A stretch of DNA of 64,000 bases from Chiloscyllium plagiosum (lineage: Eukaryota). The stretch is taken from contig NC_057746.1 of the NCBI RefSeq assembly GCF_004010195.1, positions 27,188,392-27,252,391 of the forward strand. The letters run 5' to 3'. Shown one piece after another: positions 26,232 to 50,473 of this stretch (the first letter of the stretch is position 1; every line of letters starts with the position of its first letter). The notes under the pieces were generated by a model. It saw nothing but the letters and a program-made list of their open reading frames with translations. It was not told the origin of the DNA and searched no databases. Both the position numbers and the translations under genes were made by a program.

Positions 26232-27308
26232 ATGGCGCCGAGAGAGGTCCTTCAGTTCCAGTTCCTCCACCACGAGTCGACGACCCTGAACAGGATGAAC
26301 CAACTCCGCGTGGAGGAACGTTTCTGCGATGTGACCGTGGTGACAGGCCAGCTGCGGTTCGCGGGGCACCGCGTGGTGCTGGCCGCGTGCTCGCCGTTCC
26401 TGCGCGACCAGTTCCTGCTGCAGCCGTCGCCAGAGGTGCGCGTGGCGCTGAGCGAGGGCACCGAGATGCTCTCCCGCCTGCTGCTCTCATGCTACACGGG
26501 CTCGCTCGACGTGCCCTGCGGGGAGGTGCTCAGCTACCTGACGGTGGCCAGCTACCTGCAGATGGACCACGTGGTGGAGGAGTGCAGGCGCGCACTCTCC
26601 ACGTGCATCGACCCCCGCATCAAGCTCGAGGACGACAGGGTGACCGTTGGGCCTCACGCTCGGGCCCAGGAGGCGTCCGAGACAACCGACGACGATGACG
26701 TTTACGTGGTCATCGAGGTGGACGGCCCGGCGGCGGCGGCGGAACCTTCTCGAAGCCAACCCAGCGACCCCCGGCAGGAGGCCCACCCCGAGCTCTCCGA
26801 GGCTGCCGAGGAGGAGGACGGCTCTGTGCTGATCGGTGGCAGGGGCTCCTCCTCCGATGAGGACAGCTCAGCGGCCGAGGAGAGCGGGCCCCCCCTGGGC
26901 CGCCCCGCCTGCCCTCGGCCCATTCACTGCAGCGTGTGTGCGCAGGCCTTCCAGCACCCGGAGCATCTGGTGGCCCACATGAAGGCCCACAAGCTCTTCA
27001 TGTGCCCCAGATGCGGCAAGGTGTTCCACCAGCGGGTCAACCTGGCCCGCCACATCCACGTGCACACCGGCATCAAGCCCTACCTCTGCACCGTCTGCGG
27101 CCGCACCTTCACCCAGAACCGATCGCTCAAGGACCACATGAACCTGCACAGCGGAGCCAGGCCTCACTGTTGCCACTACTGCCACATGAGCTTCGCCCAC
27201 AAGCCCGCCCTCCGCCGGCATCTCAAAGAGCAGCACAGCAAAACTACAGCTGACAACTGTAGGTTGGCCCTACTCGGCACGGCCAGCACCTACGCGGAGC
27301 CAGTGTAG
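26232..27308 (+). CDS. ZBTB12: ZBTB12-like protein A (BTB/POZ + 4 C2H2 zinc fingers), 358 aa
   Basis: Kozak ATG (GAGGCCATGG) 11 nt after a pyrimidine tract and CAG acceptor ending at 26220. BTB motifs [33 protein letters not shown]. Fingers FMCPRCGK...FAHKPALRRHLKEQHSKTT, typical of ZBTB12. Confidence 0.9.
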   Translation: MAPREVLQFQFLHHESTTLNRMNQLRVEERFCDVTVVTGQLRFAGHRVVLAACSPFLRDQFLLQPSPEVRVALSEGTEMLSRLLLSCYTGSLDVPCGEVLSYLTVASYLQMDHVVEECRRALSTCIDPRIKLEDDRVTVGPHARAQEASETTDDDDVYVVIEVDGPAAAAEPSRSQPSDPRQEAHPELSEAAEEEDGSVLIGGRGSSSDEDSSAAEESGPPLGRPACPRPIHCSVCAQAFQHPEHLVAHMKAHKLFMCPRCGKVFHQRVNLARHIHVHTGIKPYLCTVCGRTFTQNRSLKDHMNLHSGARPHCCHYCHMSFAHKPALRRHLKEQHSKTTADNCRLALLGTASTYAEPV

Positions 27309-27310
27309 AG

Positions 27311-27825
27311 GGACCCTTAATTCTGTACAGACCTGTCAGGTCCTTGCTGTGCACAGATCCATAAGGGTCTCCCTTGCTCTGTGCAGTCCCATCAGAATCT
27401 GCTTCACTCTGCACAGTCTCATCATGGTCTCCCTCGTTCTGCACAATCCCATCAGGGTATCCCTCACTCTGCACAGTCTCATCAGGGTCTCCTTCGCTCT
27501 GCATAGTCCCATCGGGACCTCCCTTGCTCTGCGCAGTCCCATCGATATCTCCCTCACTGTTTACTGCTGTTGAGATCTCCCTTGCTCATGCTGTCAGGTT
27601 CTCTCTCACTGGGTCTGGTGTCAAGGGCTCTCTCTGCAGATTCCCATTGGTTTCGCACTTGCTCTGTGGTTTCCATTGGTTTCTCTCTCACTGTGTGGTT
27701 CCCATTGGACTATCCCTCACTTTGTGTCATGGCCTTCATCACTGTGCAGGCTCCTTTAATCTGTGGTCACCCATTGGGGCCTCCCTCACTCTGTGGTCTC
27801 CTATTGGGGCTTCTGTCACTCTGAA
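27311..27825 (+). repeat. 30-bp minisatellite in the ZBTB-A 3' UTR
   Basis: About 8 clear units like ccctcactctgcacagtctcatcagggtct (27341-27560), decaying to about 27825. Confidence 0.9.
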
Positions 27826-29117
27826 TCTGGTGTTAGAACATAGAACATTACAGCGCAGTACAGGCCCTTTGGCCCTCGATGTTGCGCCGATCCAAGCCCA
27901 CCTAACCTATACTAACCCCACTATCCTCCATATACCTATCCAATGCCCGCTTAAATGCCCATAAAGAGGGAGAGGGAGAGTCCACCACTGTTGGGCTGTC
28001 CCTCACTGTAGGGGCTACTCTCAAGTTGTTCTCATGCGTAGAAAGCAGAAGACCAGAGAAAAGCTTTCCTTTCTACCTCCTTCCACAATCTTAGAATATG
28101 CCAAAGAGCTTTATAGCCAATGTTGAAATGTGGAAAAGCAGCAGACAATTCTGTGCATCACATGAGAATGAATGGACCATCTGTGTCTCATAATGGGATG
28201 TTTACTCACGCTTATATATTTTTGCCCAGGACACTGAGGATAGGTCCCCTGCTCTTTATCCTAACGGTCCAACAGAGTGGAATGATGTGGTTTTGGCTTA
28301 ACACCTCACGCAAAAGTTGGCATGAGCTCCTACAATGATTGTCCTTAAATGTAGAATAGTGTTTCAAAGTTTAGAAGTTCTTCTTAAGATGCCTGTTACA
28401 GTAGGAGCTACTTATGGGTGTGAATTTAATCCGTATATCTGTATATTAATTAACAATTGATTGTTGAATTGGTACTTTGTTAAATTACATTTTTTTAATT
28501 GTTGTAATCCTGGATGAGTATTTATGTCTTCCAAATTTGGGCTGTTTCCTTTTAGCACAGTTCAATACTTTTAATACAGATTCCCTCCATTTTGTTTTTC
28601 CCAATGTCCACAGGTTTTTCATGTTTTGCTCTTGGCTACTAATCCAAAGAGCTTGCATTCCAATTCAAGTGTGATATTTTCAGAATTTAACCTCCTGGTG
28701 TTTTAATTGTTTTATCATTAAAATTGAATGGGAATTGCCATCTGAAACCCACCCAGTTCGCTTATGTCTCCTCAGGGAAGAATTATAGAATCATGGAATG
28801 TTTACAACGCAGGAGCTCATTCAACCTATCATGTATGTAACAGCTTAAGGGATTCGCCTTCTGCCACTCTCCCTGCAACCCTGTATATTTTATTTCCTTT
28901 TTCAGATTATAATCCAATTGCTCTTTGAAAGCTACGACTCACCTTCTGTCTAACACAGTCTTGGTCATTCCTAATCCAAAACACTCACTTTATAAGTCTT
29001 TTTCTCTCCTGTCTCTGTTGTTCCTTTTACCAATTTCCTTAAACCAGTGCCCTCTTTTGTGATTATTTCAAAAGTGGGAACAGTTTCTTCCCCATCTGCT
29101 CTGTCCAGACATCTTAC

Positions 29118-29451
29118 AGATTAGATTAGATTAGATTAGATTAGATTACTTAGTGTGGAAACAGGCCCTTCGGCCCAACAAGTCCACACCGACCCGCCGA
29201 AGCGCAACCCACCCATACCCCTACATTTACCCCTTTAACCTAACACTACGGGCAATTTAGCATGGCCAATTCACCTGACCTGCACATCTTTGGACTGTGG
29301 GAGGAAACCGGAGCACCCGGAGGAAACCCACGCAGACACGGGGAGAATGTGCAAACTCCACACAGTCAGTCGCCTGAGTCGGGAATTGAACCCGGGTCTC
29401 TGGCGCTGTGAGGCAGCAGTGCTAACCACTGTGCCACCGTGCCGCCCACTA
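29118..29451 (-). mobile_element. HE1-type (V-SINE) tRNA-derived SINE, young full-length copy
   Basis: A box TGGCACAGTGG, B box GGTTCAATTCC, V-domain GTGTGGAGTTTGCACATTCTCCCCGTGTCTGCGTGGG, (TAATC)n tail; highly similar to the 53297 copy. Confidence 0.9.
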
Positions 29452-30809
29452 TTTTAATTTGCTCAATCAAATCTCCTCTCAACTTTGTCTTCATTGTAGA
29501 AACCTGTCTCAATTTACTAATCTACCTAGCTGAAATTGCCTATCCCAGGAACCATTCGGCGAATTTTACCTGCATCTTCTCAAATGCCTTCATATCTTTT
29601 TAAAAGTGTGGTCCTCAGAATTGGATGCAGTACACAGTTGAGGCCAAATAAGAGCTTTGTAAAGATTTATCAGTGCCCCTGTTATGACACCCATGACTTT
29701 GATTTCTTAACTACTTATGCCCAACTTTTCTGCCATGTGAAATTACATATGCACAAATATATCTAGGTCCCTATGCTACAGCAGCTACTTTAGTGTTGTA
29801 CCATTTTGTTCAATATAGTATCGCTATTTACCAAAATGGATCACTTCAGAATTCTCTACATAAAATTGCAAATGTCCCCATTGGTCTATTCTACCAATTT
29901 GTCTCTGGATTGTCACTTGACTCACAATCCAAAGGCCCAGACTCTAGTGTCAGCCATGAGTTCAAACCCACGCAGCACCTGGTGGAATGTTAATTCGGTC
30001 AATAATTCTTAAAAGTAAAGCTAATCTCAGTAACAGTGTCTTGAAACTACCATCATTTGTTGTAAAAACCCATCTGGTTCACTCATGCCATATAGAGAAG
30101 GACATGTAACACCCTGACCTTGACTGGCCCACATGTGACTCCAGATACATAATGTGGCTGAAGCTTAATTGCCCTCTAAAATGGCCCATCACGCTAATCA
30201 ATTTCAGGTTAGGGTAGGGGGGAACAAATGCCGGCCTTGCCACTGATAACCATTAAAAGAATAAAATATGTAACTGTCTGAGGGTTTTGTGGCACTGGAA
30301 GTGTCCCTATGTCTGAGAAAGAAGGCGTTGGTTCAAGTCTCGCCTACTCTAGAGGTGAATAATAACATCTCTTAACAAGTTAATTAGGAGATATCTATGA
30401 TCATCCATGTTCTTTTGAAATTCTACTCTGTCTTCAACATGTGCTATATTTCCAAGTTTCTCACAATCCAGAAATTTTGTAAGCATGCTATCCTTGCCCA
30501 ATTTGCATCTATATTTGACTTCAGGCTTATAACAAGGTGACCTCTTTCACTGCCCTATTAATTCACTTATCAAAAAGGCAGCCCACCAGCAATTTTCTCC
30601 AGGCTGGTAAATGGGAAAAGGGCTCTAAACACTGCCCTTGCAAGTCACACTTACATCTCAAGATGATATTTTTCTTTTATATGTATAGGATGTAGGCCCA
30701 GGTTACTCAGCATGTCATCATAGGACAATCCTCTCAACCCAAAGATCGATTTAGTGAATCTTCACTACTGTACCAATGCAAATATATCCTTCTTTAAATA
30801 GAGAGACCG

Positions 30810-31480
30810 AAACATAGAAAGTAGAAGCAGAAGAAGACCATTTTGGTCTTCAAGCCTGTCCAATACAATCAAGATTTGAAGGTGCTGGTGTTACACTGGG
30901 GTGAACAAAGTTAAAAATAACATAACACCAGGTTATAGTGCAACAGGTTTATTTGAAAGTATTTCAGACACCATCTCAAAGCCATATTCCCAATTTCTCA
31001 AATACCCCCGATGCCTTTAAAATCAAGAAATGTATCTCTTTCTTGAATTTATTCAGTAACTTGGCCTCCACAGCCTTTTGTGGTAAATCACTCCACAGAT
31101 TCACTACCAATGCAGTGAAGAAATCTTTCCTCCACTCAGTACTAAATGATATACCCTGTATCTTGAGGCTGTGTTCCCTGGTTCTAGACTCCACAACTGG
31201 GGGAACATCCTCCTGCATCTAGTTTCTCCAGCTCTGTTAGAATTGCAGACATTTCGATCAGATTCCTCCTCTTATCCTTCTAAACTTCAGTGAATAAAGG
31301 TCCCATCAAAGCAATCTCTCCTCAAAGAAGAATCCTACCATCTCCAGTATCAATCAAGTGAACCTACCCTGCACGCTCTATGGCTAGTATATCCTCTCTT
31401 TAGCAAGGAGACCAAAATTACATGCAATATTCCAGATTGTTCCAGCATAGCCTTTCAAATTAGCAGTAAGACATTCTTAC
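30810..31480 (-). mobile_element. CR1 3' fragment
   Basis: ORF remnant SRTREHSLKI..RKDFFT..VVNLWSDLPQKAVEA. Confidence 0.8.
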
Positions 31481-31659
31481 TTTAATGGGTACACAGAGTT
31501 GTACTCCAACTCATTGTTAGGTGCCTGCACCAACAAATCTGTTTGTTCATAAATTAATTATTAACTTCATAACCTGACAAAAGTCTTATGGTGTTATTCC
31601 TGCCTCTTAGTTAAAATATTAACATTGAGTTAAAAATCCCTCCCTAGAACTTGATTAGA

Positions 31660-31870
31660 GACAAAAACAACTGCAGATACTGGAATCCAAGGTGGACAAG
31701 CAGGAGGCTGAAAGAACACAGCAAGCCAGTCAGAATCAGGAGGTGGAAAAGTCGACTTTTCAGGTGTAACTCGTCTTCAGTCCTGAAGAAGGGTTATACC
31801 TGAAATGTCGACTTCTCCATCTCCTGATGCTGCCTGGCTTGCTGTGTTCTTCCACCCTGCTGCTTGATTA
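31660..31870. mobile_element. Palindromic Penelope-terminus element (different subfamily)
   Basis: Inverted arms gaacacagcaagccag / ctggcttgctgtgttc centred on cttcagtcctgaag. Confidence 0.7.
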
Positions 31871-32379
31871 CCCAAGAACTTGATACCTGATGGCCAAGGA
31901 GGGTGTGTTGATAGAATAGTTTAACTACCAGTCTGCAAATCTTGCCAGCTTTTACAATCTGGTGGTAAGAGTTGGAGAGTCTTCTGGTCAGCTTGATGCA
32001 TTTTACTTGTGCTTGAGGCTTCCTGCAAGTTATAGTCTCCTATGCCAGGTCATAAACATAATGACAAGGAGTAATAGTTTTTAACAATGGGGAAAGAGGA
32101 CCTTCAGTCAATTGTATCAATGCTAGTCATCAAACTCCATGTATTCTAAACCCATTATCCAATCGGCCTGTAGCCTTTTATCATAGGATATTTCAAGTGC
32201 TCATTTAATAGTTCTTAAGTGCCTCAAGGGTTCTTGCATCCACCATCCAAACAGGCAAAATATTTGGATACCCACAACCCTTGAAGTGAAAGAATTTCCT
32301 TCAAATCCCTTCTCAACCTCCTACTCTTTACCATAAAACTGTGCCCTCTGGTTTATGACCCCTCTATTCACAGAGTGGA

Positions 32380-32700
32380 CCCCCTACAGTGTGCAATCAA
32401 GCCATTCAGCCCATTAGGTCTACACCAACTCTCCAAAGAGCATCCCAGTCAGACCCATCCTTCTACCCTATCCCTGTAACCCTGCATTTTCAATGGCTAA
32501 TCCACCTAGCCTGCACATCTCTAGACGATGGGTAATTTAGCACGGACAATCCAACTGCATATTTTTGGATGGTGATGGTGAGAGGAAACATGCAAACGTG
32601 GAGAAAATGTGCAAACTCCACACAGCCCAAAGCTGGAATCGAACCCTGGTCCCTGGTGCTATAAGGCAGCAGTGCTAACCACTGAGCCACCATACTGCCC
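32380..32700 (-). mobile_element. HE1-type SINE
   Basis: Reverse V-SINE head and body. Confidence 0.75.
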
Positions 32701-33029
32701 TGGGCAAGGTTTGTCCCTGTCTACACCCCTCAGATCTTTGTCCACCTCAATTGGTTCTCAGTCAGACTTCTTTCCCCTCAGGAAAACAAGCCTATCCAAT
32801 CTCTCAGCCTGGAAGATTACGGAAGGTTGAAAGAGCATGGAGGCAGTGGACAGAATTAGTGTGCAGGGGATTCAAGAGTGGGAGGAGAGGAGATGGGCGG
32901 GAACACAGTGGAGGCAGATGGGTGAGAGTGGGGAAGTGTGGGAAGAAGGAATTAGGGGGTAGGAGGGCAGATGGAATGGGCAGAGAGGTGGAAAGAAGGA
33001 ATGGAGGCAGAGGAGAGGGAAGAAGGAAA

Positions 33030-33385
33030 ATGGATGGGAACAAGGAGTGGTGACAGGTGGGAACAAGGAATGGGACAGAGAGGTGGGAACAAGGAATGGG
33101 GCGGAGAGATGGGAACAAGGAATGGGGCGGAGAGATGGGAACAAGGAATGGGGCTGAGAAGGAGAAATGGGAACAAGAAATAGGGTCAGAGGAGCAGAAA
33201 AAAAGGAATGGGGTGGGAACAAGAAATGGGGTCAGAAGGGTGGGAACAAGGAATGGGGTCAGAAGGGCGGGAACAAAAAATAGGGTCAGAGGAGTGGGAA
33301 CAAGGAATGGGCAGAGGGGTAGGAAAAATCAATCGGGGTGGGAACAAGGAATGGGGTCAGAGGGGTGGGAAGAAGGAATGGATCG
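33030..33385 (+). repeat. About 26-bp purine-rich minisatellite upstream of ZBTB-B
   Basis: Repeated gggaacaaggaatgggg core. Confidence 0.9.
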
Positions 33386-33644
33386 GCAGGGTGGCAACGC
33401 AAGAGTGAACAGAGAGTAGGGAGGATTCCCTTTGAAAGACGCAGCGGTTGTTCGTCAGGGGGAAGATGCAAGTTCCTTGATCCCTGGGCAGCACAGAGCC
33501 CTCCCTCTCCGCGTGTGGAGTGTGAGTGGGGAGAACACGCTGAGGCTCCTCGGCCAACACCAGCCCCCACACCCCCGAAAGGCCATCACCAAAGCGGACT
33601 TCTCTGTCGAGTTGTCGCTGCTGCAGGCGGTGAAGCTGGAGGCG

Positions 33645-35114
33645 ATGGCCGACGGCGGGGGGAAGCTGCTGCGCTTCAGGTTCCCGGAGCACGACTCGAC
33701 GGCGCTGCGGAACATGGACGAGCTGCGGCGGGGCGAGTGGTTCTGCGACGTGACGGTGCTGGCGGGCGGCCTGCGGTTCCCGGGCCACCGGGTGGTGCTG
33801 GCCGCCTGCTCGCCGTTCCTGCGCGACCGCTTCCGCATGGAGCCGGCCCGCGAGGTCACCGTGCTGCCCGCCACCGCCGCCCCGCAGGCCGTGCTCCGCC
33901 TGCTGCTCGCCTGCTACACCGGCCGCCTCGAGTTCCCCTTCGCCGACATCCTCGACTACCTGACCGCCGCCAGCTGCCTGCAGATGGAGGACGTGGTCGA
34001 GCAGTGCCGCCGCTCGCTCTCGCCCTGCGTGGTGGCCGCCTCGCTGCTGCGGCTCGCCCAGGACGGGGGCGGCGGCGAGGCCGAGGACGGAGCGGGGCCT
34101 GCGGCCGCTGGAGGAGGCCTCCGCCCGGGCCGCTCCTCCGGAAACCCGCGCGTCGGAGCGGCTGCGAACCGGGCGGCGGAGAGACTCGAGGCCGAGGCCT
34201 CCCCCCTTCCTCCTCCCACCCAACCCCCTGGGACGACGGGGGCGGTGCGAGGCGTCGAACCGGTCAAACTCGAGGCCCAGGCTTCTCCACCACCACCTCC
34301 TCTCCTAGGCCCCGGTGACCGGGAGGCTCTCGCCGCCCCTCACCCGCCTCCTCCGCCCGCCGCCGATTACCTGGAGACGGAGGGCCGCGTCCACCGGAGG
34401 CCGGGGCTGGAGGTGGGCCAGGGGGAGGGAGGGGAGGAGGGGGGCGATGGCGGAGATGGGGAGGAGGACCGGGCCAAGGCCGAAGGGATGGTGGCCGAGG
34501 CCTACCCGCCGGGCACCGGGGCGGAGGAAGGAGGGGAGGAAGAGCCCGAGGACGACTACGAGAGCTCGGCCAGCGAGGAGTGCCGGGCCTCGGGGGGTTT
34601 CTACGGCGGAGGGGCGGCAGGGGGTTTCTACCAGCGGCCCGGGCTGGGAGAGGAACCGCAGGCCTCGGGCCTGGAGGAGGGCCCCGGGCCCGGTCCTGCT
34701 CCCGGAGCCGGGGGCTTGGCCGAGCCGCCCCTCCTGTGCTCGGAGTGCGGGGCCCCGTTCGAGCAGCGCAGCGGCCTGGCGGCCCACCTGCTGCTCCACA
34801 AGCTGTACATGTGCCCGCTCTGCGGCAAGCTCTTCAAGAAGAACGCGCGGCTGGCCCAGCACCTCAACGTGCACACCGGCTTCAAGCCGTACGGCTGCGC
34901 CGTCTGCGGCCGGGCCTTCACCCAGAACCGCTCGCTCAAGGACCACATGAACGTCCACAGCGGAGACTCGCCGCACAGCTGCGGCTACTGCGACATGCGC
35001 TTCACCCACTACAACACCCTGCGGGTCCACCTCCGGGACCAGCACGGCAAGACCACCAGCGGCAAGAACTCCGGGGAGCCCAGGCTGGCCGAGATCAACG
35101 TGGTAGTGCCCTAG
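33645..35114 (+). CDS. ZBTB12: ZBTB12-like protein B (BTB + 4 C2H2), 489 aa
   Basis: First ATG (GCGATGG) after a ctgctgcag acceptor ending at 33626. Intact BTB, acidic Gly/Pro linker, 4 fingers, C-terminus HGKTT..AEINVVVP. Confidence 0.88.
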   Translation: MADGGGKLLRFRFPEHDSTALRNMDELRRGEWFCDVTVLAGGLRFPGHRVVLAACSPFLRDRFRMEPAREVTVLPATAAPQAVLRLLLACYTGRLEFPFADILDYLTAASCLQMEDVVEQCRRSLSPCVVAASLLRLAQDGGGGEAEDGAGPAAAGGGLRPGRSSGNPRVGAAANRAAERLEAEASPLPPPTQPPGTTGAVRGVEPVKLEAQASPPPPPLLGPGDREALAAPHPPPPPAADYLETEGRVHRRPGLEVGQGEGGEEGGDGGDGEEDRAKAEGMVAEAYPPGTGAEEGGEEEPEDDYESSASEECRASGGFYGGGAAGGFYQRPGLGEEPQASGLEEGPGPGPAPGAGGLAEPPLLCSECGAPFEQRSGLAAHLLLHKLYMCPLCGKLFKKNARLAQHLNVHTGFKPYGCAVCGRAFTQNRSLKDHMNVHSGDSPHSCGYCDMRFTHYNTLRVHLRDQHGKTTSGKNSGEPRLAEINVVVP

Positions 35115-37199: not shown

Positions 37200-37600
37200 T
37201 GTAGAAAATTAAGGGAATAAAATTATTAATCCCATAGACAGTGGTAACACAATTGTTACTGATCTCAAACATAAGGGCATAAATATTACTAATCTCAGGC
37301 ATGGTGGAAACAGGCTTGTTACTAATCTTTGACATTGATAACAATCCTGCACAATCTGAAACAGCAGGGAAGAACAGGATTATTACTAATCTTAGATAGA
37401 GCAGAATTGTTACAAATCCCCAAAAATAGAGAAGATAGCAATGTTGGTTAATTTAATTCATGGTGGAAATCTGATTTTTACACATCTCTAGACAATGAGG
37501 GCAAGATTGTGACTAATGCCAAAAATGGTGGGAACAAGATTGTAACTAATCTCAAATGGGGAGAGGGGCAGAATTACTATTCTCATAAATATTATTCATT
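37200..37600 (+). repeat. Degenerate about 31-bp repeat (attgttactaatctc core)
   Basis: Recurrent ttactaatct motif. Confidence 0.6.
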
Positions 37601-37849
37601 CTGCAAAGACATGAACTGAATCTAGTTTGAGTCCATAAATGGCAATTTTAACTTAACACTGACAAGCAAATGAGACAGCTATTATGACAGCTAAGACTTG
37701 CCATTTTACCAATGAAAGGAAGTTTATCAATTAATAATTACTAAAACACTGATTCGTGTGGGGATGTATAAAACATAGCTGGTAGGTTTGTTAGCTAAGA
37801 GTTTGTGAATCTGTGTGACTGTGGTATTTGTCAGCAGAAAACGGTTCGA

Positions 37850-39600
37850 GATTCAGAGAAAGATCCAGTTTCAAATGTGCCGACCTTTGGAGTGATCCTA
37901 TAGCAATTGCTGGAACCATGCAATATCAAAACATTAGAAAGTGCTGAATCTGATGCCAACTGACTGTCAGAATGATTCACAACCAGACGGATTCTGTGTC
38001 AGAACTACCAGATTATAGAGCCAAAAGCATCTTATGATTAACGCACTCAGTCCCAGTTTGACAGAGGATTATGTCAAATGGATCCTGTTCTAGATCCATC
38101 CAGTGCTAGAGTACTGAGTGCAAAGTCTGACATCTAATAGCAAACAGATCTAGTGACATAGAATTCTAATACCAGAGCTCAAGTGACAGAAACCGTGGTC
38201 GATTCATTGCTAGGGAAATCGAGTGACAGTATTAGAGAAAGGATTCATTGGCAGATGTCAAATGACAGATCCAGTGATTAAATGAAAGAGTGCTGAAGCA
38301 GGTGTATCTGGTGAATGGTACATTGAGTGTTGGGAGATCCAGTTACAGAGATTGAATGAAGAGTTCTACAAAGATTGATCAATAGAGATAAATAGTGATA
38401 ATTAGACTGAGTGACAGTGATCTAGCAATTAGGGTTCTACTATGCTATTTCAGAAAAAGTGACAGATCTGTGGCAAAAAGATCAAGTATCGGGAAGATCC
38501 AGTGATGAATCATATGAATGGGCGTGGGCAGAGATTCTAATGGAACAGAAATAAAGTGATGGTGAAGGTTCTATTTATGGACTGACTGACAGGTAGGAGA
38601 GATACAGTGACAGATGAAGTCATGATGAGAGCCTATTCACAGATTGTGCGGCAAGGAGATCCTATGCCAGTGAGATCAGGTACGAGAGGGTTCTAATGAC
38701 TGATAAATTGAGCTGAAGTAAGATGGGAGTGCCTAGGAGATCAAGTCAGAGATCTTATGAGATAGGGTTCCAGTGATGGATCGAGTAAATAAACAAGAGT
38801 GTGATTGGGGAGATCTAGTGGAAGAGAGTAAGCAATAGAGATGCAAATACATTGATTAGTGATCTAGTACTAGGAAGTTTGAAATCTGGGGATTAGTGAT
38901 AGTTTTCTATTCCAGTTAGTGAGCTATAAAGTGTCAGTATGATCAATCGATTGATTGGCCGATCCAATGTTAGGGAGGTTGAGCGATATCAGTGACAATG
39001 CTAAGAGGTCGAGTGCTAGGGATTCAGTGGCATGCACCAACAGTGCCAATGTTATTGGGTGCTACAGGGATTCAGTTGCGGGTTCAACATCGGGGAAATC
39101 TATTTACCGAGAGATCGAATGACCCAGTGGAAGGTACCAGCGTCGGAGACATCAAATGAGGATCCCCCCTCCGCCCCGGCAGAAAGACTTGAGTGCAACA
39201 GAGATCCATTGACGGGGGAGAAGAATAACAGAAAGAACGAGTTTATGGTGAGACCCAATGAGCGCGGGATCGAGTGATGGAGAGACCATGTGCCGAGTAG
39301 GTTTCCAGTGGCAGACATCGAGCGATATCAGGGGCCGGGGGGGATCCAGTGCGGCTCGGAGATTGCGCAACGGGAGATCTGGTGAGAGAGATCGAGCGAC
39401 GCTGGAATCGGCGACGGGTATACGTCCGATCGAGGGGGGAGAGATCCAGTGACACAGACCTACAGGGAAGGGGGGAGAGATCCAGTGGCCAAGAGATCGA
39501 GCGACATCCGGGGGACGGGGAGACCGAGCGGCGGGGGCGATCCAGTGAGGAGGGATCAAGTGACCGGGAGATCCTGGAGGGGGGGGAAGGCTGGTGGAAA
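37850..39600 (+). repeat. Degenerate tandem repeat (gagatc(c/g)agtga core)
   Basis: Recurrent gatccagtg/gatcgagtg motifs with GC content rising toward the gap. Confidence 0.65.
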
Positions 39601-39625
39601 CTCCGCGGCTGCGGCTGGTCGGCCC

Positions 39626-40261
39626 NNNNNNNNNNNNNNNNNNNNNNNNNNNNNNNNNNNNNNNNNNNNNNNNNNNNNNNNNNNNNNNNNNNNNNNNNNN
39701 NNNNNNNNNNNNNNNNNNNNNNNNNNNNNNNNNNNNNNNNNNNNNNNNNNNNNNNNNNNNNNNNNNNNNNNNNNNNNNNNNNNNNNNNNNNNNNNNNNNN
39801 NNNNNNNNNNNNNNNNNNNNNNNNNNNNNNNNNNNNNNNNNNNNNNNNNNNNNNNNNNNNNNNNNNNNNNNNNNNNNNNNNNNNNNNNNNNNNNNNNNNN
39901 NNNNNNNNNNNNNNNNNNNNNNNNNNNNNNNNNNNNNNNNNNNNNNNNNNNNNNNNNNNNNNNNNNNNNNNNNNNNNNNNNNNNNNNNNNNNNNNNNNNN
40001 NNNNNNNNNNNNNNNNNNNNNNNNNNNNNNNNNNNNNNNNNNNNNNNNNNNNNNNNNNNNNNNNNNNNNNNNNNNNNNNNNNNNNNNNNNNNNNNNNNNN
40101 NNNNNNNNNNNNNNNNNNNNNNNNNNNNNNNNNNNNNNNNNNNNNNNNNNNNNNNNNNNNNNNNNNNNNNNNNNNNNNNNNNNNNNNNNNNNNNNNNNNN
40201 NNNNNNNNNNNNNNNNNNNNNNNNNNNNNNNNNNNNNNNNNNNNNNNNNNNNNNNNNNNNN
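39626..40261. other. Assembly gap (636 N)
   Basis: Run of N flanked by GC-rich sequence. Confidence 1.
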
Positions 40262-42374
40262 CCCTCAAATCCCCATCTCCACACCCCCCCCCCCCCCATC
40301 GTTCTGTAAGGTATGGAGTTAATGTTTCTCACAGTTTCCTCCCACCATCTTCAACACCCCATATCATCTTCAACTCCCCAATCTCAGTCCATACCCCCAC
40401 CTTCAAACCACTTCCAGCCCCTTCTAAACCCCACCTCCAATCCTCTGGAAGCCTCATATCCAACCTGTCTTCAAAGCCCCAACTCCACACCCTACCTCCA
40501 AGACTGCAACTCCAGCCCTCTCTAACCTTGCAACCAAAAGCCCTCTTCAAAACCTGGACCAAAAGACCCCCCATCTCCAAAATAGTGTTTCTAACAATCA
40601 CAACACCATTTCCAAATATTATCCTCTTCCCTCCAAACAATGTGAAAGCAAAAGTAAGCCTTCGGATCTGCTCAGACATTCAGTGAGATCATGAATAATC
40701 TGATAATCGTCAATTTTCCCTTATGACTGTTAATTCCCATAATTAGAAATCTGTTTGTATCAACATTCCATACTTGGCAGCAAACTCCAAACCCTCCATC
40801 CAAATGTCATTTTAATCCCACACCTCCAAACATGATACTGAATACTATGTCTCCAGCCATTCTTTAAACTGACATCTAAGCCCCTTCCTCATCTCCAACC
40901 GCCCTTACAAACCTTTTATCCAAAACCTCACCACCAACACTCTTTAAATTCAACATCTAAATTTCATCTCAAACCTTATCCAAATACCCATTTTCAACCC
41001 TCCTCAAATTCAAAACTCAATTTCCAAATCATGTATAGAAAACCATAACCTGAATAGCCTAAAACCCTTAACACCCTCAAAACCATAACCTCCAGAACCC
41101 TAACCACCAAACCCCAAAATAACCTAACAACCAAAAAGTTTCAGCCCCAAAAACCCTAACTCCTTCTCACCAAAAAACTTCATCCTTACCTAACCATTCA
41201 GAACATTATCAAAGGCATAACCCAAAACCCACAACACACTCCACCTCCCCCCAGAATCTTAACCGCTCAGGAAAATCCTAACCAGACCAGTCTTAAATCT
41301 GGAACAAAAACAAACCAAAGAAATAAAAATGGAAGATGGTGAAAAAACTCAGTAGGTCTAGCAGCATGCAGGGAGAGAAAATAGAGTTAACACTTCTATT
41401 CCAGTAACCTGTCTTCAGAACTGATTGTAGTGGGGAAAAGGTTGGTATATATGATGTTGGTATTTTCCAGCTCCCGCCCCATCTTCAGTGTATATACCAA
41501 TCTTAAAAGCTACAATCAGTTCTGGATTGTATCAAAATGTTAACTCTCCTTTCTCTCTGCAGATACTGCCAGACCTGCTGACTTTATCCAGCAATTTGTT
41601 TCAGCCTAAAACATTAACCTCTCAAACCTCAACTCTAACACAACCATGGAAAATCCTTAACCGTCCCCTCAAACCCTGACCCAAAAATATTAACTTCTCA
41701 AAACCTTAACCATATCCCAAAATGCTTTGCACCAAAACCCTAAACTGACCATCACAAAGTAATTTCCTCTCGACATCACTCCACCTCCCTGCTGTGCGCT
41801 TCTCCCTCATTGAGAAAGCTTTCTGTAAATTGATTGAAGGCTATGAAATTACTTTTAGCCAATAGCATACGGGAAGATCATAGAGTTGAGCTGAGTTGAG
41901 GAATGTCTTGGGACTGTATCACTATCACTGGGTCAAATTGCTGGTATTCCCTCACTGCAAACACTGTTAGACATAGAGCTAATGTGTTAGGAAACTGCAC
42001 AGGAGGAATGGGCTTAGTTTTGAAGAAACATCGTACTGCATTCAAAACATTGACCCTGTTGCTGCCAGGTCTGAGTTTCTCCACCATTTAGTTTTTATTT
42101 CAGGTGGGATGAATCAGACTTGTACGGTCATAGGTCCAATCTAAGGGGGGGGGGGGGGGGGGGAGAATGAGGGTTAATGGTGATGTGGAAGTGGGACAGA
42201 GTTTGGAATGGGAATGTTGCAGAGTGGTAGAAAGGAAAATGGCAAATTTGTTGGGCGATGCAGGTAGGAGGTAGACAGAAATTGGCTTGTTCAAGCTTGG
42301 GTCGAAAGTGATTTTCAAGTTGTGCGCGCTGATGGGGAGAGTGACTCATTACTTGTGTTGCTTAATTGGAATGA

Positions 42375-42975
42375 CTGGATTAGAGCATGGTAACAGACCC
42401 TTCGGTTCAACCAGTCCATGCTGACCACAATCCCAAATTAAACTAGTCCCACCTACCTATCCAGCCTCTCCTTATAACTTAAACCCTCCAATCCCAGCAA
42501 CATCCTGGTAAATCTCTTCTGAAACCTCTCTAGGCTTCTTCCTATAACAGGGCGATCAGAACCGGACACATTACTCCCGAAGAGGCCTCACCAACGTCAT
42601 ATACAGGCTGAACATGATGTTCCAACTCCTATACTTTGAAGGTCTGAGCAATGAAGGCAAGCGTGCTAAACATCGTCTTTATCACCACGTTTACATGTGA
42701 TGCAAACTTGAATTATGAAGCTGAACACCTAGGTCTCTCTGTTTTACAACATTACCCAAGGCCCTGCTTTTAATTGCGGAAGTCATACCCTTGTTTGTTT
42801 TACCAAATGCAATACCTAACATGTATCCAAATTAAACTCCATCTGCCACTCTTTGGCCCATTGACTCAATTGATCAAGATCTCTTCGTAATCTGAGACAA
42901 CCTTCTTCTCTGTCTACTATATCACCAATATTGATGTCATCTGCAACTTTACTAAGCATACCTTCTATATTCTCA
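42375..42975 (-). mobile_element. CR1 fragment
   Basis: Similar to 5510-6420. Confidence 0.7.
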
Positions 42976-44479
42976 TGATTGAATTAAATACCTCAATGCA
43001 ACTTAATTGCGTCATGCATGGAATTCAACAGTAAAGGAGGAGGCCGTACAACCAATCGTTTTGGCATGTGACAGTTCACTTGGATAGTCACTTCTGTATG
43101 CAGAGGTTTAGAGCTATGGATAGTGATGGTAGAGACTCCATTTTTCTTTCCACCACATCGTTGCACTCACACTTACTGTCTGACATTGAAACTTGAAGGG
43201 ATTTACTCAACTTGTGTTAGGACTGTTCCTTCCATGCCATTAGACCCTTATATGGGATTAAAAACTGGAGTTCAGATGCAGGGAGGCTGCTCATGTGCCA
43301 CAAGATCTGGGATCCGTTGGTAGAGCTATTCAATTAGCCACAATTTTCCTTTTTGAATTTTTTAATTGCTCATCTCTCCCTCTGATGATAAATGGTAAAT
43401 AATAAATCCATATCCTTTGGTTACTGACCCACTGCCACTGGAAGCAGTTTCTTTGTGTCTATTCTGTCAAAGCCTTTCGTAATTTTGAAAATCTCTGCTA
43501 AATCATTCCTTAACTTTCTTTGCCATGCTGAGAGCTGTCCCAGTTTCTCTGGTCTCAGAAATCCCTCATCCCTGGTGAGACAGAGAATATAGGAGCAGGA
43601 GTAGGCCATTCGGCCCTTCAAGCCTGCTACATTATTCTAGATCATGGCTGACCATCTAACCGTATGTTACTGACCAGTTTAGACCCACACCTCGCTCCCC
43701 CCTCAAAGTGTACAATGGAAATATCCTAGACTCTAACTTTTATACTTTTTAAAAGGCAAGTATAAAGTGCTGTGTTCCACACATGATTAGATTGGTCCAT
43801 CATTAAGCTTAAACCAAAACTTACTTTATTCTTACAACATAGTTAAAATACAACAAAGAAGAATTAGCATAACTTTATTGAAATACATAACAAGATAATA
43901 TATTATTTAACAACTAATCATGAAATGTTCCAACATAGGCAGCATCCCAAAAACACATGCTTGGTAAACACAATTCAGCAACACAATTATCATTCTCACA
44001 CACTGTCTCTGTTCAGTCCAGAAGAAAGAAACACTGAAAAAAACAATTTGCCCCTTTTGATTTTTTTTTTAAGAGGAAGGCTTCAGAACTAGGGGGAGGA
44101 AAAGCAAAGTCTCATGGATGTTGGGAGATGTCAAATAAAAACAGAAAGTGTGAGAGAAACTCAGGTCTGGCAGCATTTGTGGAGAAATAGTGTTAACACT
44201 TTGCCTCCAATTTGATTCTTCCTCAGAACTCGGGAGCCCTACTTTAAAATTCAGTATTGTCATTTTAGGGAAGTTTTTCTCTCAGAATGTGTGCGACTTT
44301 GCCTCCGAAGGCTATGTGAAGGATACTTTAACACTGGTTAACACACTATAAAAAGGATGAGATTGCACCAGAGAGGATGCAGATGTTGCCTGGTTGCAGT
44401 GAATCAGCTGTGAAGAGAGACCAGATAGGCTGGGGATGTTTGCCTTTGAGCAGAGAAGGCGGAGGAGGGATCCGATTAG

Positions 44480-45450
44480 AACGTAGAATGGTACAGCAGA
44501 GGAACAGGCTCTTGGGCCAACCATGTTTGTGCTGACCATGATGCCATTCTAAATGAACCTACCTGCCTGCACACGATCCATTTTCTTCAATTCACTGCCT
44601 GTTTATATGTCTGTCTAAAAGCCCGTTAAACATTACGATTTTATCTGCTTCTACCACCTCCCCTGTCAGCATGTTACGGGCACCCGCCATCCTCTGCATA
44701 AAAAAAACTTGCTTCGGACATCTCCTTTAAACTTTCCCCCTCTCACCTTAAATCTATGCCCCGTAGATTTCCACCTTGGCAAAAAGACTCTGACTATCTG
44801 CGATTCCCAATTTAATGCATTTCTGTGGTCACATCTTAGCTTCTGACTCGTCAGCAAAAACAATCCTCTCCTTATAGCTAATACACTCCAACTCAGGAGG
44901 AGAAAGTGAGGACTGCAGATGCTGGAAACCAGAGTTGAAAAGTGTGGTGCTGGAAAACCACAGCAGGCCAGGCAGCATCTGAGGAGCAGGAGAATCGACA
45001 TTTCAGGCATAAGGGCTTATGCCCAAAACATCGATTCTCCTGTTCCTCGGATGTTGTCTGGCCTGCTGTGTTTTTCCAGCACCATACTTTTCAACACTAC
45101 ACTCCAATTCAGACAACAGCCTGGCAAACCTCTTTTGCACCCTCTCTAATACCTCTATATCCTCCTATGGTGTAGTGACTAGAACCATACACAATATTCC
45201 AAATGTGGCCTAACTAAAGTTATATACACCTGCAACATGACTCATCAATTTTATACTCAGTGATCTGTCTGATGAATGCAAGCATGCCTAACACCTTTTC
45301 CTGCCTTATCCATCTGTATTGCCATTTTCAAGGAGCTATGGACATGCACCTCAAGGTCCCTCTGTTATTTAGTGCTCCTCATGGTGTTACCATGTACTGT
45401 ATAGTCTCCTCTTGCATTTGATCTCTCAAAACTGCATCACTTCACACTTA
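44480..45450 (-). mobile_element. CR1 3' fragment with a palindromic insert at about 44895-45095
   Basis: GHRFKVRGGKFKGDVRSKFF remnant plus CR1 3' UTR. Confidence 0.7.
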
Positions 45451-46547
45451 AGGGGAGGTGATGGCTTAATGCTATTAATTGCTGGACTGCTAATCCAGAC
45501 ACTCAGGTTGCATCCCAGGAAAACAGATTTGAACCCTGCCATTGTAGATGGTGGAATTTGAATTCATTTTTTTCAAAATCTGGAATTAATAGTCTAAAGA
45601 TATCCATGAATCCAGTGTTGGAAAAACCCATCTGGTTCATTAATGTCCTTTAGGGCAGGAAACTGCTATCCCTACCCGGTCTGGTCTACATGGGACTCCA
45701 GAACCACAGCAATGTGGCTGACTGTTAACAGCACTCTGTGCATTGAGGGCTGGGCAATTAATGCTCAACTAGCTGGCAACGCCTACCTCCTATGAATGAA
45801 TTTAAAAATGCACTTGTCTGGATTAAAATTTCACATGCCATTTCTCCACCCACACTCCCACTTGAGGTGTACAACATTCTGAGATAAGGAAAAAAATTTC
45901 CCCTTAGTTGAGCGGTTAGTAACCAGGGGCACAATTTTAAGATAAAAAGCAGAAGGTTTAGAGGGAATTTGAGGAAATTATTTCTCATCCAGAGGACTGT
46001 GTTTATCTGGAACTCACTGTTTAAAAGGGTGGTAGAGGCAGGAACCCTCAGGGCATTTTGGAACTATTTAAATGAACAGATGAAATGCATACAAAGGTAA
46101 CAGATCAAGTGCTTGAAAATAGGATTAGATTAGATGGACTGTGGGATGAAGGGCCTCGTTCCATGCTGTAAATATGCTCTGATTCTAAGGTGAGGGAGGG
46201 GGGGGGTCATTTAATATTTTTAAGATAGACAAGGGAATCAAAAAGCTTTTGGATAATTGGGAATGTGGAATTTAAAAAACTTACAAATTGGCCAAGATCT
46301 TATTGAGTGGCAGAGACTGAACGGCTTGAAGGGCTGATCAGCCTTCTGCTGCCCTTGATTTGTGCATCTGCAGGTTAGGCCTATACTCATTGGAATTAGG
46401 AAAAATGAGAGGTAATCTTATTGAAACATATAATATTCTGAGTAACCTTGAAAGGCAAGATGCTGAAATACTTCTCTTTTGGGCGAAATATAAGTGAGGA
46501 GCCACAGTTTAATAATAAAGTGTCTCTAATTTAAGGTGGGGAGAAGG

Positions 46548-46892
46548 AAGGAGGCGATGGCGTAGTAGTATTATCACTGAACTGTTAATCCAGAATCCCA
46601 GGTAATGTTCAGGGGACCTAAGTTTGATCCCTGCTATGGTGGAATTTGAATTCAATAAAAATCTGGAATTAAGAGTCTTAAGGATGACCATGAGTCCATT
46701 GTCAGGAAAAACCCATCTGGTTCACTGATGCCCTTTACGGAAGGAAACTGCAATCCTTACTTGGTCTGGTCTCCATGTGACTCTAGAACTACAGCAATAC
46801 AGTTGACTCTCAACTGGCCTCTGAAACTAGGGATGCGCAATAAATGATGGCCTGGCCAGTGATACCCATATCCTATGAATGAATTAATAAAA
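46548..46892 (+). mobile_element. Second tRNA-headed SINE family (related copies at about 45453-45805 and 29900-30265)
   Basis: Shared core aaaaacccatctggttca.t.atg.ccttta..g.aggaaactgc and tail gggatg.gcaataaatg.tggcct.gccag...atgaatgaat. Confidence 0.7.
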
Positions 46893-47269
46893 GGAAGATG
46901 GGTAATGTTTAGAATTCACTTCCCCAGCATGTCTGGGAGATTGGTTCAGGGTATATACTCAAGGCTGAGTTGAGTAGGATTTAAAAAAATTTACTCGTGG
47001 GATATAGGTGTTGCTGGCTGGCCAGGATTTTATTACCCGTCCTAACTGCCCTTGAGAAGTGAGCAGCAACCTTGATCCACTGCAGTCTACATGCTGTAGA
47101 TTGACCCCCAATGGCCTAAGGGAAGGAATTCCAGGATTTGACCCAGTGAAGGAACGGCAATATATTTCCAAGTCAGGATGGTGAGTGGCTTGGAGGGAAC
47201 CTTGCAGGTGGCAGCTTAATCTGTATGAGGGAGTTGAGGATTATTGTTGGCAAACAGGAAAGAGCAAAA

Positions 47270-48725
47270 TTCTAGATTAGTGGTGCTGGAAGAGCACAGC
47301 AGTTCAGGCAGCACCCAAGGAGCTTCGAAATCGACGTTTCGGACAAAAGCCCTTCATCAGGAATAAAGGCAGTGAGCCTGAAGCGTGGAGAGATAAGCTA
47401 GAGGAGGATGGGGAGAAAGTAACATAGAGCACAATGGGTGAGTGGGGGAGGGGATGAAGGTGATAGGTCAGGGAGGAGAGGGTGGAGTGGATAGGTGGAA
47501 AAGGAGATAGAGGTGGGGAGTGGTGCCGGTGTAATTACGGAAGATCAACTGCTCTACGTCGCCAACAAAGAGACAGGCATAGCACACCGGCACTACTCCC
47601 CACCTCTTCCTCCACTGCATTGATGACTGCATTGGCGCCACCTCGTGCTCCCGCGAGGAGGTTGAGCAATTCATCAACTTCACCAACACAATCCACCCTG
47701 ACCTTAAATTCACCTGGACCATCTCTGACACCTCCCTCCCCTTCCTGGACCTCTCCATCTCCATTAATGACAACCGACTTGACACTGACATTTTTTACAA
47801 ACCCACCGACTCCCACAGCTACTTGGATTACACCTCTTCCCAACCTACCTCTTGCAAAAATGCCATCCCGTATTCCCAATTCCTCCGCCTCCGTCGTATC
47901 TGCTCCCAGGAGGACCAGTTCCACCACAGAACACACCAGATGGCCTCCTTCTTTAGAGACCACAATTTCCCTTCCCACGTGGTTAAAGATGCCCTCCAAC
48001 GCGTCTTGTCCACAACACGCACCTCCGCCCTCAGACTCCACCCCTCTAACCGTAACAAGGACAGAACGGCCCTGGTGCTCACCTTCCACCCGATGCGGTC
48101 TCCTCTACATTGGGGAGACTGGACGCCTCCTAGCAGAGCACTTTAGGGAACATCTCCGGGACACCCGCACCAATCAACCACACCGCCCTGTGGCCCAACA
48201 TTTCAACTCCCCCTCCCACTCTGCCAAGGACATGGAGGTCCTGGGCCTCTTTCACCGCCGTTCCCTCACCACCAGACGCCTGGAGGAAGAATGCCTCATC
48301 TTCCGCCTCGAACACTTCAATCCCAGGGCATCAATGTGGACTTCAACAGTTTCCTCATTTCCCCTTCCCCCACCTCACCCCAGTTCCAAACTTCCAGCTC
48401 AGCACTGTCCCTATGACTTGTCCGGACTTGTCCTACCTGCCTATCTCCTTTTCCACCTATCCACTCCACCCTCTCCTCCCTGACCTATCACCTTCATCCC
48501 TTCCCCCACTCACCCATTGTACTCTATGCTACTTTCTCCCCACCCCCACCCTCCTCTAGCTTATCTCTCCACGCTTCAGGCTCACTGCCTTTATTCCTGA
48601 TGAAGGGCTTTTGCCCGAAATGTCGATTTCGAAGCTTCTTGGATGCTGCCTGTACTGCTGTGCTCTTCCCGCACCACTAATCCAGAATCTGGTTTCCAGC
48701 ATCTGCAGTCATTGTTTTTACCCAT
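47270..48725 (+). mobile_element. Penelope-like retroelement, truncated, with long inverted termini and 14-bp target-site duplication
   Basis: RT remnant (IDDCIG, FYKPTDSHSYLDY) and GIY-YIG remnant (LYIGETGR..EH). About 240-bp inverted repeats at 47270-47510 and 48441-48690. Flanking direct repeat AGGAAAGAGCAAAA at 47256-47269 and 48726-48739. Confidence 0.88.
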
Positions 48726-48919
48726 AGGAAAGAGCAAAAGCTACAATCATAATCTGGCAGAGGAGAGGAGCCAAATGGGCTCACCTTCCTCCTATTTCCT
48801 GGAGGAAAGGAATGATTCGCCCTGCGTCTTTAGATTAGATTAGATTAGATTACTTACAGTGTGGAAACAGGCCCTTCGGCCCAAGTGTTAGCAACACTGG
48901 GTATATTGTGGTCCATCTG

Positions 48920-49110
48920 AAGATGTCTGATGCATCGTTCCCTGTTATTTCTCCTTCTTGTCCACCTCCTCAGATAAGCAATTGGAGAATGCCATCCTAA
49001 GCACCTTTCCCTGTTATTTCTTCTTCTCCCGCACCCACCCCAGATAAGCAATTAGAGGATATTGTCTAATGCATCTATTCCTGTTATTTCTCTTTATCCC
49101 TCCCCAGATT
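48920..49110 (+). repeat. Three about 70-bp units, each a 3' splice-site module
   Basis: cctgttatttc at 48941, 49010 and 49080, each followed by pyrimidines and CAGAT (48971, 49041, 49105). Confidence 0.85.
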
Positions 49111-49123
49111 CCTCTGCCCAGCT

Positions 49124-50473
49124 ATGGCGTCTGACGACGTAGTGAGGTTTCAGTTCCCGAGCCACGAGGTGACCATCCTGAAGAAGATGAACCAACTGCG
49201 GTTGGAGGAGCGTTTCTGTGATGTGACCATCGTGGCGGACCAGCTGCGGTTCCCGGGCCACAGGGTGGTATTGGCCGCATGCTCGCCGTTCCTGCGTGAT
49301 CAGTTCCACATGAACCCATCACAGGAGGTGCAGGTCTTCCCCATGACCGGCGCCCAGATTGTGCTGCGCCTGCTGCTCTCATGCTATACCGGCTGCCTAG
49401 AGTTCCCCTTCAATGACATCCTTGACTACCTGACAGCCGCGAGCTGCCTGCAGATGGAGCATGTGGTGGAGAAGTGCCGCCAATCGCTGTCACCACGCAT
49501 CGGGCCCCGCGTGCCCCCATCCGAGGGAGTCGATGAGGGGCCTGGCACGCCGCAGATCGCCAGCTCGTCAGAGCGAGTGCCGGACACCGAGAGGCCAGCT
49601 CCTTGGGAAGCTGGAGCAGCACCACCAGCACCAGAGGAGAAAATACCGAAACGGGCGCCAGCTGACGATGTGGTGAAGCTGGAGTCAGAACAACACTCAG
49701 ATTTCAGCGGGACCGAGGATATCTGCATCCACAAGGTGGAGTCGCTAGCCGACTGCATGGAGGGTTGCCCGGAGCCGGTGGGCAAAGTGCGGGGTCCTGA
49801 GGCCGCCAACGGCTTGGAGCCCGATCCGGGCATCCATTCGACAGCGGGTGGCTACCCAGATGCCGGTGGCCCTCCCTATGACATGTCAGAGGTGATGATC
49901 TCAGATGAGTTCCAGGAGGAGGACTATGAGAGCTCAGCTAGTGAGGAGTGCCGCAGCAGCGGCTTCACTGGTAGTTACTACCGGCCCGGAGAGGAGCACC
50001 CGCCGCTGGCACCTCAACAGCAACAGCCGCCGCCCCCTTCTGCCAGTGCCCTGGCGGGACTGGGCGCTAAGGAAGGGGAGTCGGCGCGCAGCCCTGGCCT
50101 GTGCTCGGAATGCGGCGCACCGTTCGAACACCGCGAGCACCTGGCTGCGCACATGGTAGTCCATAAGCTCTACATGTGCCTGCTGTGTGGCAAAGTGTTC
50201 AAGAAAAATGCACGGCTGGCGCAGCACATCAATGTGCACACCGGCTTCAAGCCATACTGCTGCGCTATCTGCGGTCGCACCTTCACGCAGAAGCGCTCGC
50301 TCAAGGACCACATGAACGTGCACAACGGTGACTCGCCGCATTGCTGCAGTTACTGCGACATGCGCTTCACCCACTACAGCACCCTGCGGGTCCACCTCCG
50401 GGACCAGCACGGCAAGACCACTACACGCAACATGGAGAACAAGCCCGCTGAAATCAGCCTGGTGGTGCCTTAG
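49124..50473 (+). CDS. ZBTB12: ZBTB12-like protein C (BTB + 4 C2H2), 449 aa
   Basis: [30 protein letters not shown]; linker motifs VKLE and DICIHKVES as in ZBTB12; 4 fingers; C-terminus AEISLVVP; acceptor just upstream. Confidence 0.92.

Follow-up and report, generated by a model that had tools for sequence, protein, structure and literature searches.

Three ZBTB12-type genes beside a probable EHMT2 in Chiloscyllium plagiosum: old tandem duplicates of sharks and rays, two of them with recoded zinc fingers

We describe three genes of the ZBTB (BTB-zinc finger) family, here called copies A, B and C, that lie in tandem in a 64,000-nucleotide stretch of the Chiloscyllium plagiosum genome (the window; contig NC_057746.1, positions 27,188,392 to 27,252,391). 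The explanation that we favor overall, with somewhat better than even confidence, is that two old tandem duplications produced them, that A has remained conservative, and that B and C share a recoded motif and have otherwise diverged from each other. The trees show both duplications to have been complete before sharks and rays diverged, as the A, B and C clades each hold sharks and rays, and judging from their finger residues B and C probably recognise a DNA sequence different from that of A. The expansion is apparently undescribed: we found no description of shark or ray ZBTB12 copies in a literature search that covered subscription journals thinly and left figures and part of the supplements outside, and the available main-text passages of PMC10751288, a source of gene orders used below, make no mention of ZBTB.

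Three intact copies and their DNA-contact residues

All three copies are intact frames on the forward strand that end in TAG and encode an N-terminal BTB domain followed by four C-terminal C2H2 fingers, which places them in the ZBTB family. Pfam matches to BTB (PF00651; E 5e-20 to 4e-22) and C2H2 (PF00096) were above cut-off in each. Contacts below are helix positions -1, 2, 3 and 6, and helices run from -2 to +6.

26232-27308, forward strand: copy A coding sequence, 358 amino acids, BTB at residues 22-124
Ending at 26220, forward strand: copy A splice acceptor
26928-26990, 27003-27065, 27087-27149 and 27171-27236, forward strand: copy A fingers 1-4, contacts HEHA / QVNR / QRSD / HPAR, helices QHPEHLVA / HQRVNLAR / TQNRSLKD / AHKPALRR
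33645-35114, forward strand: copy B coding sequence, 489 amino acids, BTB at residues 24-125, GC content 0.73 and 0.90 at third codon positions (GC3)
34737-34799, 34812-34874, 34896-34958 and 34980-35045, forward strand: copy B fingers 1-4, contacts QSGA / KARQ / QRSD / HNTV, helices of fingers 1-3 EQRSGLAA / KKNARLAQ / TQNRSLKD
49124-50473, forward strand: copy C coding sequence, 449 amino acids, BTB at residues 22-122, linker motif DICIHKVES
Ending at 49107, forward strand: copy C candidate splice acceptor
50102-50164, 50177-50239, 50261-50323 and 50345-50410, forward strand: copy C fingers 1-4, contacts HEHA / KARQ / QRSD / HSTV, helices of fingers 2-4 KKNARLAQ / TQKRSLKD / THYSTLRV

Three intact paralogs with these helices had been proposed in an earlier note on this DNA, and the frames, the Pfam domains and a re-reading of the helices bear this out. 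Pairwise identity among the copies is 53-66% in the BTB domain and 56-79% in the finger region, and their nearest relatives are proteins of bamboo and epaulette sharks. An assembly artefact or collapsed haplotype is ruled out, since the BTB domains are only 53-66% identical and each copy has orthologs in other species. Within the window, tblastn with seven queries detected neither a fourth copy nor any remnant.

For comparison we used database searches, with cluster look-ups added, to assemble a set with a single sequence for each species and type (14 of A, 14 of B and 17 of C); the set includes halves of two fused gene models and several close relatives, so its rows are not independent. The contacts of ZBTB12 from bony vertebrates (bony ZBTB12) are GEKF / HSNR / QSTD / HPAR and those of shark ZBTB26 are HENS / QSNR / QCSD / HPAR. 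We selected 86 bony ZBTB12 sequences by their finger-4 helix, a choice that in itself makes this finger invariant; finger 2 reads NHSSNLNR in 84 of them and finger 3 reads TQKSTL(H/Y)D in all 86. Neither helix occurs in any of the 45 A, B and C sequences, and A, B and C also lack the ZBTB26-type finger 2 (QKGNLHR or QKSNLTR).

Finger 3 is constant in its contacts, QRSD being present in 45 of 45 A, B and C sequences. In B and C, finger 2 has new residues at all four contacts and finger 4 at three, so that seven of eight have been replaced, and the new residues have been kept almost without exception: finger 2 is KARQ in 30 of 31 B and C sequences, and finger 4 is HNTV in 14/14 B and HSTV in 17/17 C. 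Zinc ligands and linkers are all intact in both. The sole finger position at which B and C differ consistently is +2 of finger 4 (N versus S), so there are probably two specificities rather than three. Finger 1 had been thought to differ in all three window copies; this is true of the letters, but A and C have the same contacts (H, E, H, A), and the Q, S, G, A of copy B occurs in 3 of 14 B sequences, each from a bamboo or epaulette shark. B in general has the contacts of C, with HNTV in finger 4 as the exception. A long copy B branch (0.35-0.43) is likewise confined to these sharks and may reflect relaxed constraint or GC-biased conversion.

Copy A differs from bony ZBTB12 at 7 of 16 contacts (C at 12 of 16) and from shark ZBTB26 at 4 of 16. 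Its finger 4 is the same, letter for letter, as in the ZBTB26 of sharks and chimaera. The suggestion that A keeps the ancestral finger 4 is supported, but A is not mammal-like, as its fingers 1-3 are without the bony ZBTB12 helices. If ZBTB26 is a fair outgroup, A would be the least changed of these proteins and bony ZBTB12 would itself be derived; our reasoning for this is the small distance of A from shark ZBTB26, its larger distance from bony ZBTB12 and the long bony stem (0.50, versus 0.48 for B/C, in a 39-row tree).

Each linker also carries one psi-K-x-E SUMO consensus (A residue 130 IKLE, B residue 207 VKLE, C residue 184 VKLE), and close to it are acidic-hydrophobic motifs that we take to resemble SUMO-interaction motifs. 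Nine solved-structure matches to the copy C BTB domain included no ZBTB12, ZBTB26 or ZBTB6 chain.

Ancestry and age of the copies

The trees give the order (bony ZBTB12, (A, (B, C))), separate from ZBTB26, in which the union of A with B and C is tentative. In the 39-row tree, to which bony ZBTB26 had been added, bony ZBTB12 together with A, B and C was separated with support of 100/99 both from ZBTB26 and from a ZBTB26-like group of reptiles. A grouping of B and C with ZBTB26 was among the outcomes that the earlier note had named as refuting its reading, and it did not appear; by the approximately unbiased (AU) test, placement of B+C inside bony ZBTB26 (p-AU 3.5e-5) or inside the ZBTB26-like group (p-AU 1.2e-5) was rejected. 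Other features point the same way: (i) the BTB domain of C has an identity of 63-66% with ZBTB12 and of 48-50% with ZBTB26; (ii) an HGKT(T/S)-type tail is found in 41/41 A, B and C sequences (counted, as are the motifs below, with the two fused models excluded), in 86/86 bony ZBTB12 and in 0/92 ZBTB26-type sequences; (iii) C retains the DICIxKVES linker, as DICIHKVES; and (iv) B and C have AEI-type tails, as had been claimed, and A is without one. Two further motifs, RSLKDH in finger 3 (41 of 41 A, B and C sequences) and an SSASE-type motif in the linker (31 of 41), are absent from all 86 bony ZBTB12 and all 92 ZBTB26-type sequences and favor a single shark-ray origin of A, B and C.

Gene order is in agreement with ZBTB12 ancestry. 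According to the available parts of the supplement tables of PMC10751288, from which all gene orders below are taken unless another source is named, the catshark has exactly three unnamed gene models between EHMT2 and C2/Bf, the white shark and the sawfish have two, one of them a fusion of A and B, and the reedfish has a single zbtb12 in the same slot and the same orientation; the position between EHMT2 and C2/CFB that is expected of the ZBTB12 lineage is thus seen in all four. The fused A+B protein P0004 is the sawfish model that adjoins EHMT2. In the window we could identify no exon of C2. We take the gene name bat8 to be an alias of EHMT2. In zebrafish, bat8 and zbtb12 are listed on one scaffold in the available part of PMC1309616. 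The location beside an H3K9 methyltransferase gene, to which the earlier note had drawn attention, holds in that the neighbor is probably EHMT2; since the two genes are also close in reedfish and zebrafish, this closeness is ancestral synteny and gives no pointer to function.

A, B and C types are all found in both sharks and rays. In a 46-row tree the A (100/98), B (95/87) and C (98/95) clades each contain sharks and rays, and B+C is a clade with 100/100. The expansion is therefore lineage-specific as proposed, but the lineage is sharks plus rays and not this species; orthologs of each copy in other sharks and rays rule out a species-specific expansion. A search with the copy C finger region gave 16 matches among 39 candidates, all from sharks or rays. 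A search with copy A gave 659 matches, and among the best 120 of these, on which our statements rest, bony-type ZBTB12 helices were found in 0 of 26 cartilaginous-fish rows (including P0028, assigned by its A-type sequence); six bony-type rows that carry no species name are closest to tetrapod proteins. A search of 50%-identity representatives was dominated by multi-finger proteins and added no copies. No ZBTB6 was found among the retrieved proteins when they were screened with helix motifs, and these proteins included no chimaera copy of A, B or C. In the available part of the PMC10751288 supplement, the chimaera table has no rows for ehmt2, slc44a4, nelfe or skiv2l.

Possible gene conversion and transcript sharing between copies

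The two halves of the ray B and C proteins give different trees. With LG+G4 and 34 rows, the BTB domain alone places B (100/97) and C (96/94) in clades of their own, and a union of the ray B and ray C domains is rejected (p 3e-6); in the tree of the fingers alone ray B joins ray C (90/98, unstarred), and a B clade is not rejected (p 0.116). This suggests gene conversion of B/C fingers 1-3 in rays that would have spared position +2 of finger 4, with convergence in a few residues as a possible alternative.

In two skates the B and A proteins are annotated as isoforms X1 and X2 of one gene, with consecutive accessions, and this naming points to a 5' exon shared by A and B. The window has no CpG island between A and the B coding exon. 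Against a shared exon, the probable B model of the catshark is a separate 3.4-kb gene, and isoform pairing is absent from the records of other species. Two public models, P0004 (sawfish) and P0283 (white shark), join A and B in proteins of 762 or 862 amino acids with two BTB domains. These models, whose junction peptides are unrelated, are probably read-through products or annotation artefacts.

The probable EHMT2 side and other features of the window

Further features of the locus are as follows.

18735-18846, forward strand: upstream exon predicted for A, inside a CpG island, with a putative 5' start and a GT donor at 18847
18975-18995, reverse strand: probable first coding exon of EHMT2, MASLDAE followed by GT, its 5' end overlapping the first intron of A
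2801-3196, reverse strand: open frame with probable EHMT2 N-terminal exon (RAKMT...VHKARKS)
969-1217: second ARKS exon
39001-39625, no strand assigned: candidate C promoter, a CpG-rich stretch between B and C (CpG observed/expected 0.89 in 39001-39500) that continues into undetermined sequence

The frame at 2801-3196 is one that we take to resemble EHMT2/G9a, and the name EHMT2 for the window exons is probable, being based on this likeness and on the gene-order tables; an Atlas search with the EHMT2-like exon gave no usable match. N-terminal extensions of A models from relatives map to 18735-18846 (35 of 37 amino acids are identical in P0020) and are in frame to the A acceptor. Within 18735-18995 the first exons of A (forward) and probable EHMT2 (reverse) lie head-to-head and overlap, either exon falling within intron 1 of the opposite gene; the upstream exon of A is antisense to its minus-strand neighbor. 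The first forward-strand gene overlaps the start of EHMT2 by 245 bases in the white shark, 231 in the sawfish and 362 in the catshark, whereas the reedfish zbtb12 and EHMT2 models are 8.6 kb apart.

An imperfect tandem repeat with a unit of about 36 bases lies 3' of the copy A stop codon (27322-27694). LINE-like (long interspersed element) fragments with reverse-transcriptase and GIY-YIG-like frames occur at 47467-48480, 5505-7700 and 59630-61521. Many SINE-like (short interspersed element) repeats are also present, and there are self-complementary elements at 13985-14151, 15755-15915 and 31697-31866.

Discussion

In the history that we favor, a first tandem duplication would have separated A from B/C and a second B from C. 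The B/C ancestor retained finger 3 and the finger-1 contacts, and the residues that replaced seven of the eight contacts in fingers 2 and 4 then became nearly fixed. Going by their family, A, B and C are probable transcriptional repressors that act as BTB homodimers. Human ZBTB12 is described in the available part of PMC9911396 as a highly conserved repressor with mostly intergenic or intronic sites that restrains HERVH and dedifferentiation. Because the main differences between B and C are in the N-terminal segment of the BTB domain, the linker and the tail, these two probably share their target sites and differ in partners or expression.

In C2H2 fingers, Arg at +6 reads G, Asn at +3 reads A and Gln at -1 reads A. 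The array 8-mer of Zbtb12 given in the available part of PMC4341892 is CTAGAACC, and under these rules its CTA would be read by finger 3 and its GAA by finger 2. A, whose code is near that of shark ZBTB26, should bind a C(C/T)AGAA-type core because Q, N and R are kept in its finger 2. With Lys-1, Arg+3 and Gln+6, finger 2 of B and C should read roughly AG(G/T), and the two would therefore share a new motif in which C(C/T)A is retained and GAA becomes roughly AG(G/T). The guanine contact of finger 4 in B and C would be lost with Arg+6.

Several observations weigh against this history or against the place we give to A and to the contact residues: (i) support for A, B and C as one clade was 93/81 in the 39-row and 94/77 in the 46-row tree, unstarred; (ii) the AU test did not reject A with bony ZBTB12 (p-AU 0.185) or B/C with bony ZBTB12 (0.165); (iii) the trees contained no chimaera, cyclostome or ZBTB6 sequence; (iv) no enrichment of change was found at contact positions, either in one comparison (7/16 versus 23/63 other finger positions, p 0.77) or in a further one (7/16 versus 32/63, p 0.78), change being no denser there than in the rest of the fingers, so that these data give no support for directional selection on the contacts; and (v) A is not uniformly constrained, because its finger-1 cysteines are lost in three of four ray species (P0049, P0280 and the N-terminal half of P0004) and both skates have finger 2 changed to GPRAGLAR. 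Among the window paralogs dN/dS (nonsynonymous over synonymous rates) is 0.15-0.67, but dS is unreliable at a GC3 of 0.75-0.90 and we have not used these values for selection.

The first of these points and the p-AU of 0.185 would also suit a different order of events, in which the duplication separating A from B/C is older than the split between sharks and bony fishes, the gene truly orthologous to bony ZBTB12 is A, and B/C were lost in bony vertebrates. A and bony ZBTB12 have in common the finger-4 contacts HPAR and an MCPRCGK motif, and the RSLKDH and SSASE-type motifs shared by A, B and C could also be produced by conversion among neighboring copies. However, HPAR is ancestral, being present in shark ZBTB26 too, the RSLKDH and SSASE-type motifs occur in none of the ZBTB12 or ZBTB26-type sequences, and there was no bony-fish sequence among the 16 matches to the C finger region. 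We consider such an early duplication rather unlikely.

A second alternative concerns what became of fingers 2 and 4 in B and C. These may have lost their base contacts, leaving weak binding by finger 3 or recruitment by a partner, with the residues being kept for a protein or RNA surface. The change of Arg+6 to Val in finger 4, the lack of Asn+3 and Arg+6 in finger 2 and the lack of excess change at contacts are consistent with this, and the available part of PMC9911396 reports that the effect of human ZBTB12 on HERVH is mostly not through direct binding to LTR7. On the other hand, the intact zinc ligands and linkers, and helices that are nearly invariant across sharks and rays, speak for continued DNA binding. 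Finger 2 has also gained Lys-1, Arg+3 and Gln+6, which are common base-contact residues. On balance loss of contact is unlikely.

We regard it as distinctly unlikely that A-B, A-C or B-C heterodimers read composite sites, although heterodimers had been raised as a possibility in the earlier note. BTB identity of 53-66% in the window might allow them, and a 5' exon common to A and B would make co-expression possible. Four of the eight fixed differences between the B and C BTB domains fall in the six N-terminal columns, at or just before what we take to be beta1, and this suits homodimers. In its available part, PMC9468604 sees no energetic bar to heterodimers but finds them to be infrequent among ZBTB proteins, with homodimers preferred and dimerisation being co-translational and subject to beta1-based quality control; heterodimers among the shark copies are in that light unsupported.

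That B and C are relocated relatives of ZBTB26 or ZBTB6 is highly improbable: several B and C proteins are auto-named 'ZBTB26-like', the TGFKP linker and a finger-4 'TH' are common to B/C and the reptile ZBTB26-like group, and the top Atlas match for C is ZBTB6 (0.99), but this ranking does not separate ZBTB families (0.99 is likewise reached by ZBTB43 and ZBTB26, and 0.98 by BCL6), the AU tests and the BTB identities given above contradict it, sharks and chimaera have a ZBTB26 of their own (P0047, P0075), and lungfish ZBTB6 adjoins ZBTB26 on another chromosome in the available gene-order tables.

Two old tandem duplications remain our preferred history, and it can be extended to a wider joint picture that we hold to be doubtful. 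Sharks and rays would be without any bony-type ZBTB12, A would carry the older ZBTB26-like code and B/C the new motif; the fingers of B and C would be kept in step by repeated conversion while BTB domain and linker diverge; and A and B would be alternative terminal exons behind one promoter that overlaps that of EHMT2, with splice choice switching specificity.

The shark and ray genes resemble bony ZBTB12 in having a BTB domain and four C2H2 fingers, in their slot between EHMT2 and C2/CFB, in lying head-to-head with EHMT2 as in reedfish, in the HGKT(T/S)-type tail and, copy by copy, in the DICIxKVES linker (C), the AEI tail (B, C) and the finger-4 contacts HPAR (A). They differ from it in number and in that none of the three has the bony finger 2 or finger 3. 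ZBTB26 of sharks, chimaera and bony vertebrates and the reptile ZBTB26-like group have the same architecture, and finger 4 of shark ZBTB26 is identical to that of A, but they form a separate branch (100/99) with a BTB identity of 40-54% and are found at a different locus. The ZBTB26-like group (finger 3 of TQNATLQD type; P0114, P0116, P0118, P0124, P0126-P0128 and P0130), from reptiles and others, is itself distinct from true ZBTB26. The gene-order tables, as far as available, also list two tandem ZBTB26-like genes in reedfish and lungfish ZBTB26 and ZBTB6 models that start 14 bases apart, which suggests a shared first exon.

Tandem zbtb12 duplicates are not unique to sharks; there is a fish gene name 'tandem duplicate 2', and two axolotl proteins lie on contigs of one length. 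In fingers 2-4 the two axolotl proteins have retained bony-type helices. In KRAB-ZFP clusters, neofunctionalisation of zinc fingers after tandem duplication, with new residues at -1, 2, 3 and 6, is a familiar route. Sharks and rays differ from these clusters in showing one old change with near-complete fixation, no fast turnover and no excess at contacts.

Our analysis corrects the public annotation, in which A, B and C proteins stand under mixed names (ZBTB12-like, ZBTB26-like, uncharacterized) and two gene models are fused. The system is not of a new kind, since duplication plus finger change is familiar. Fingers 2 and 3 of bony ZBTB12 are near-invariant from bichir to mammals, and sharks and rays provide a natural series where recoding appears to have struck two fingers out of four once, after which they were frozen. 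This would make the locus a clean test case for the way in which a conserved C2H2 factor acquires a new motif, and for which side is ancestral.

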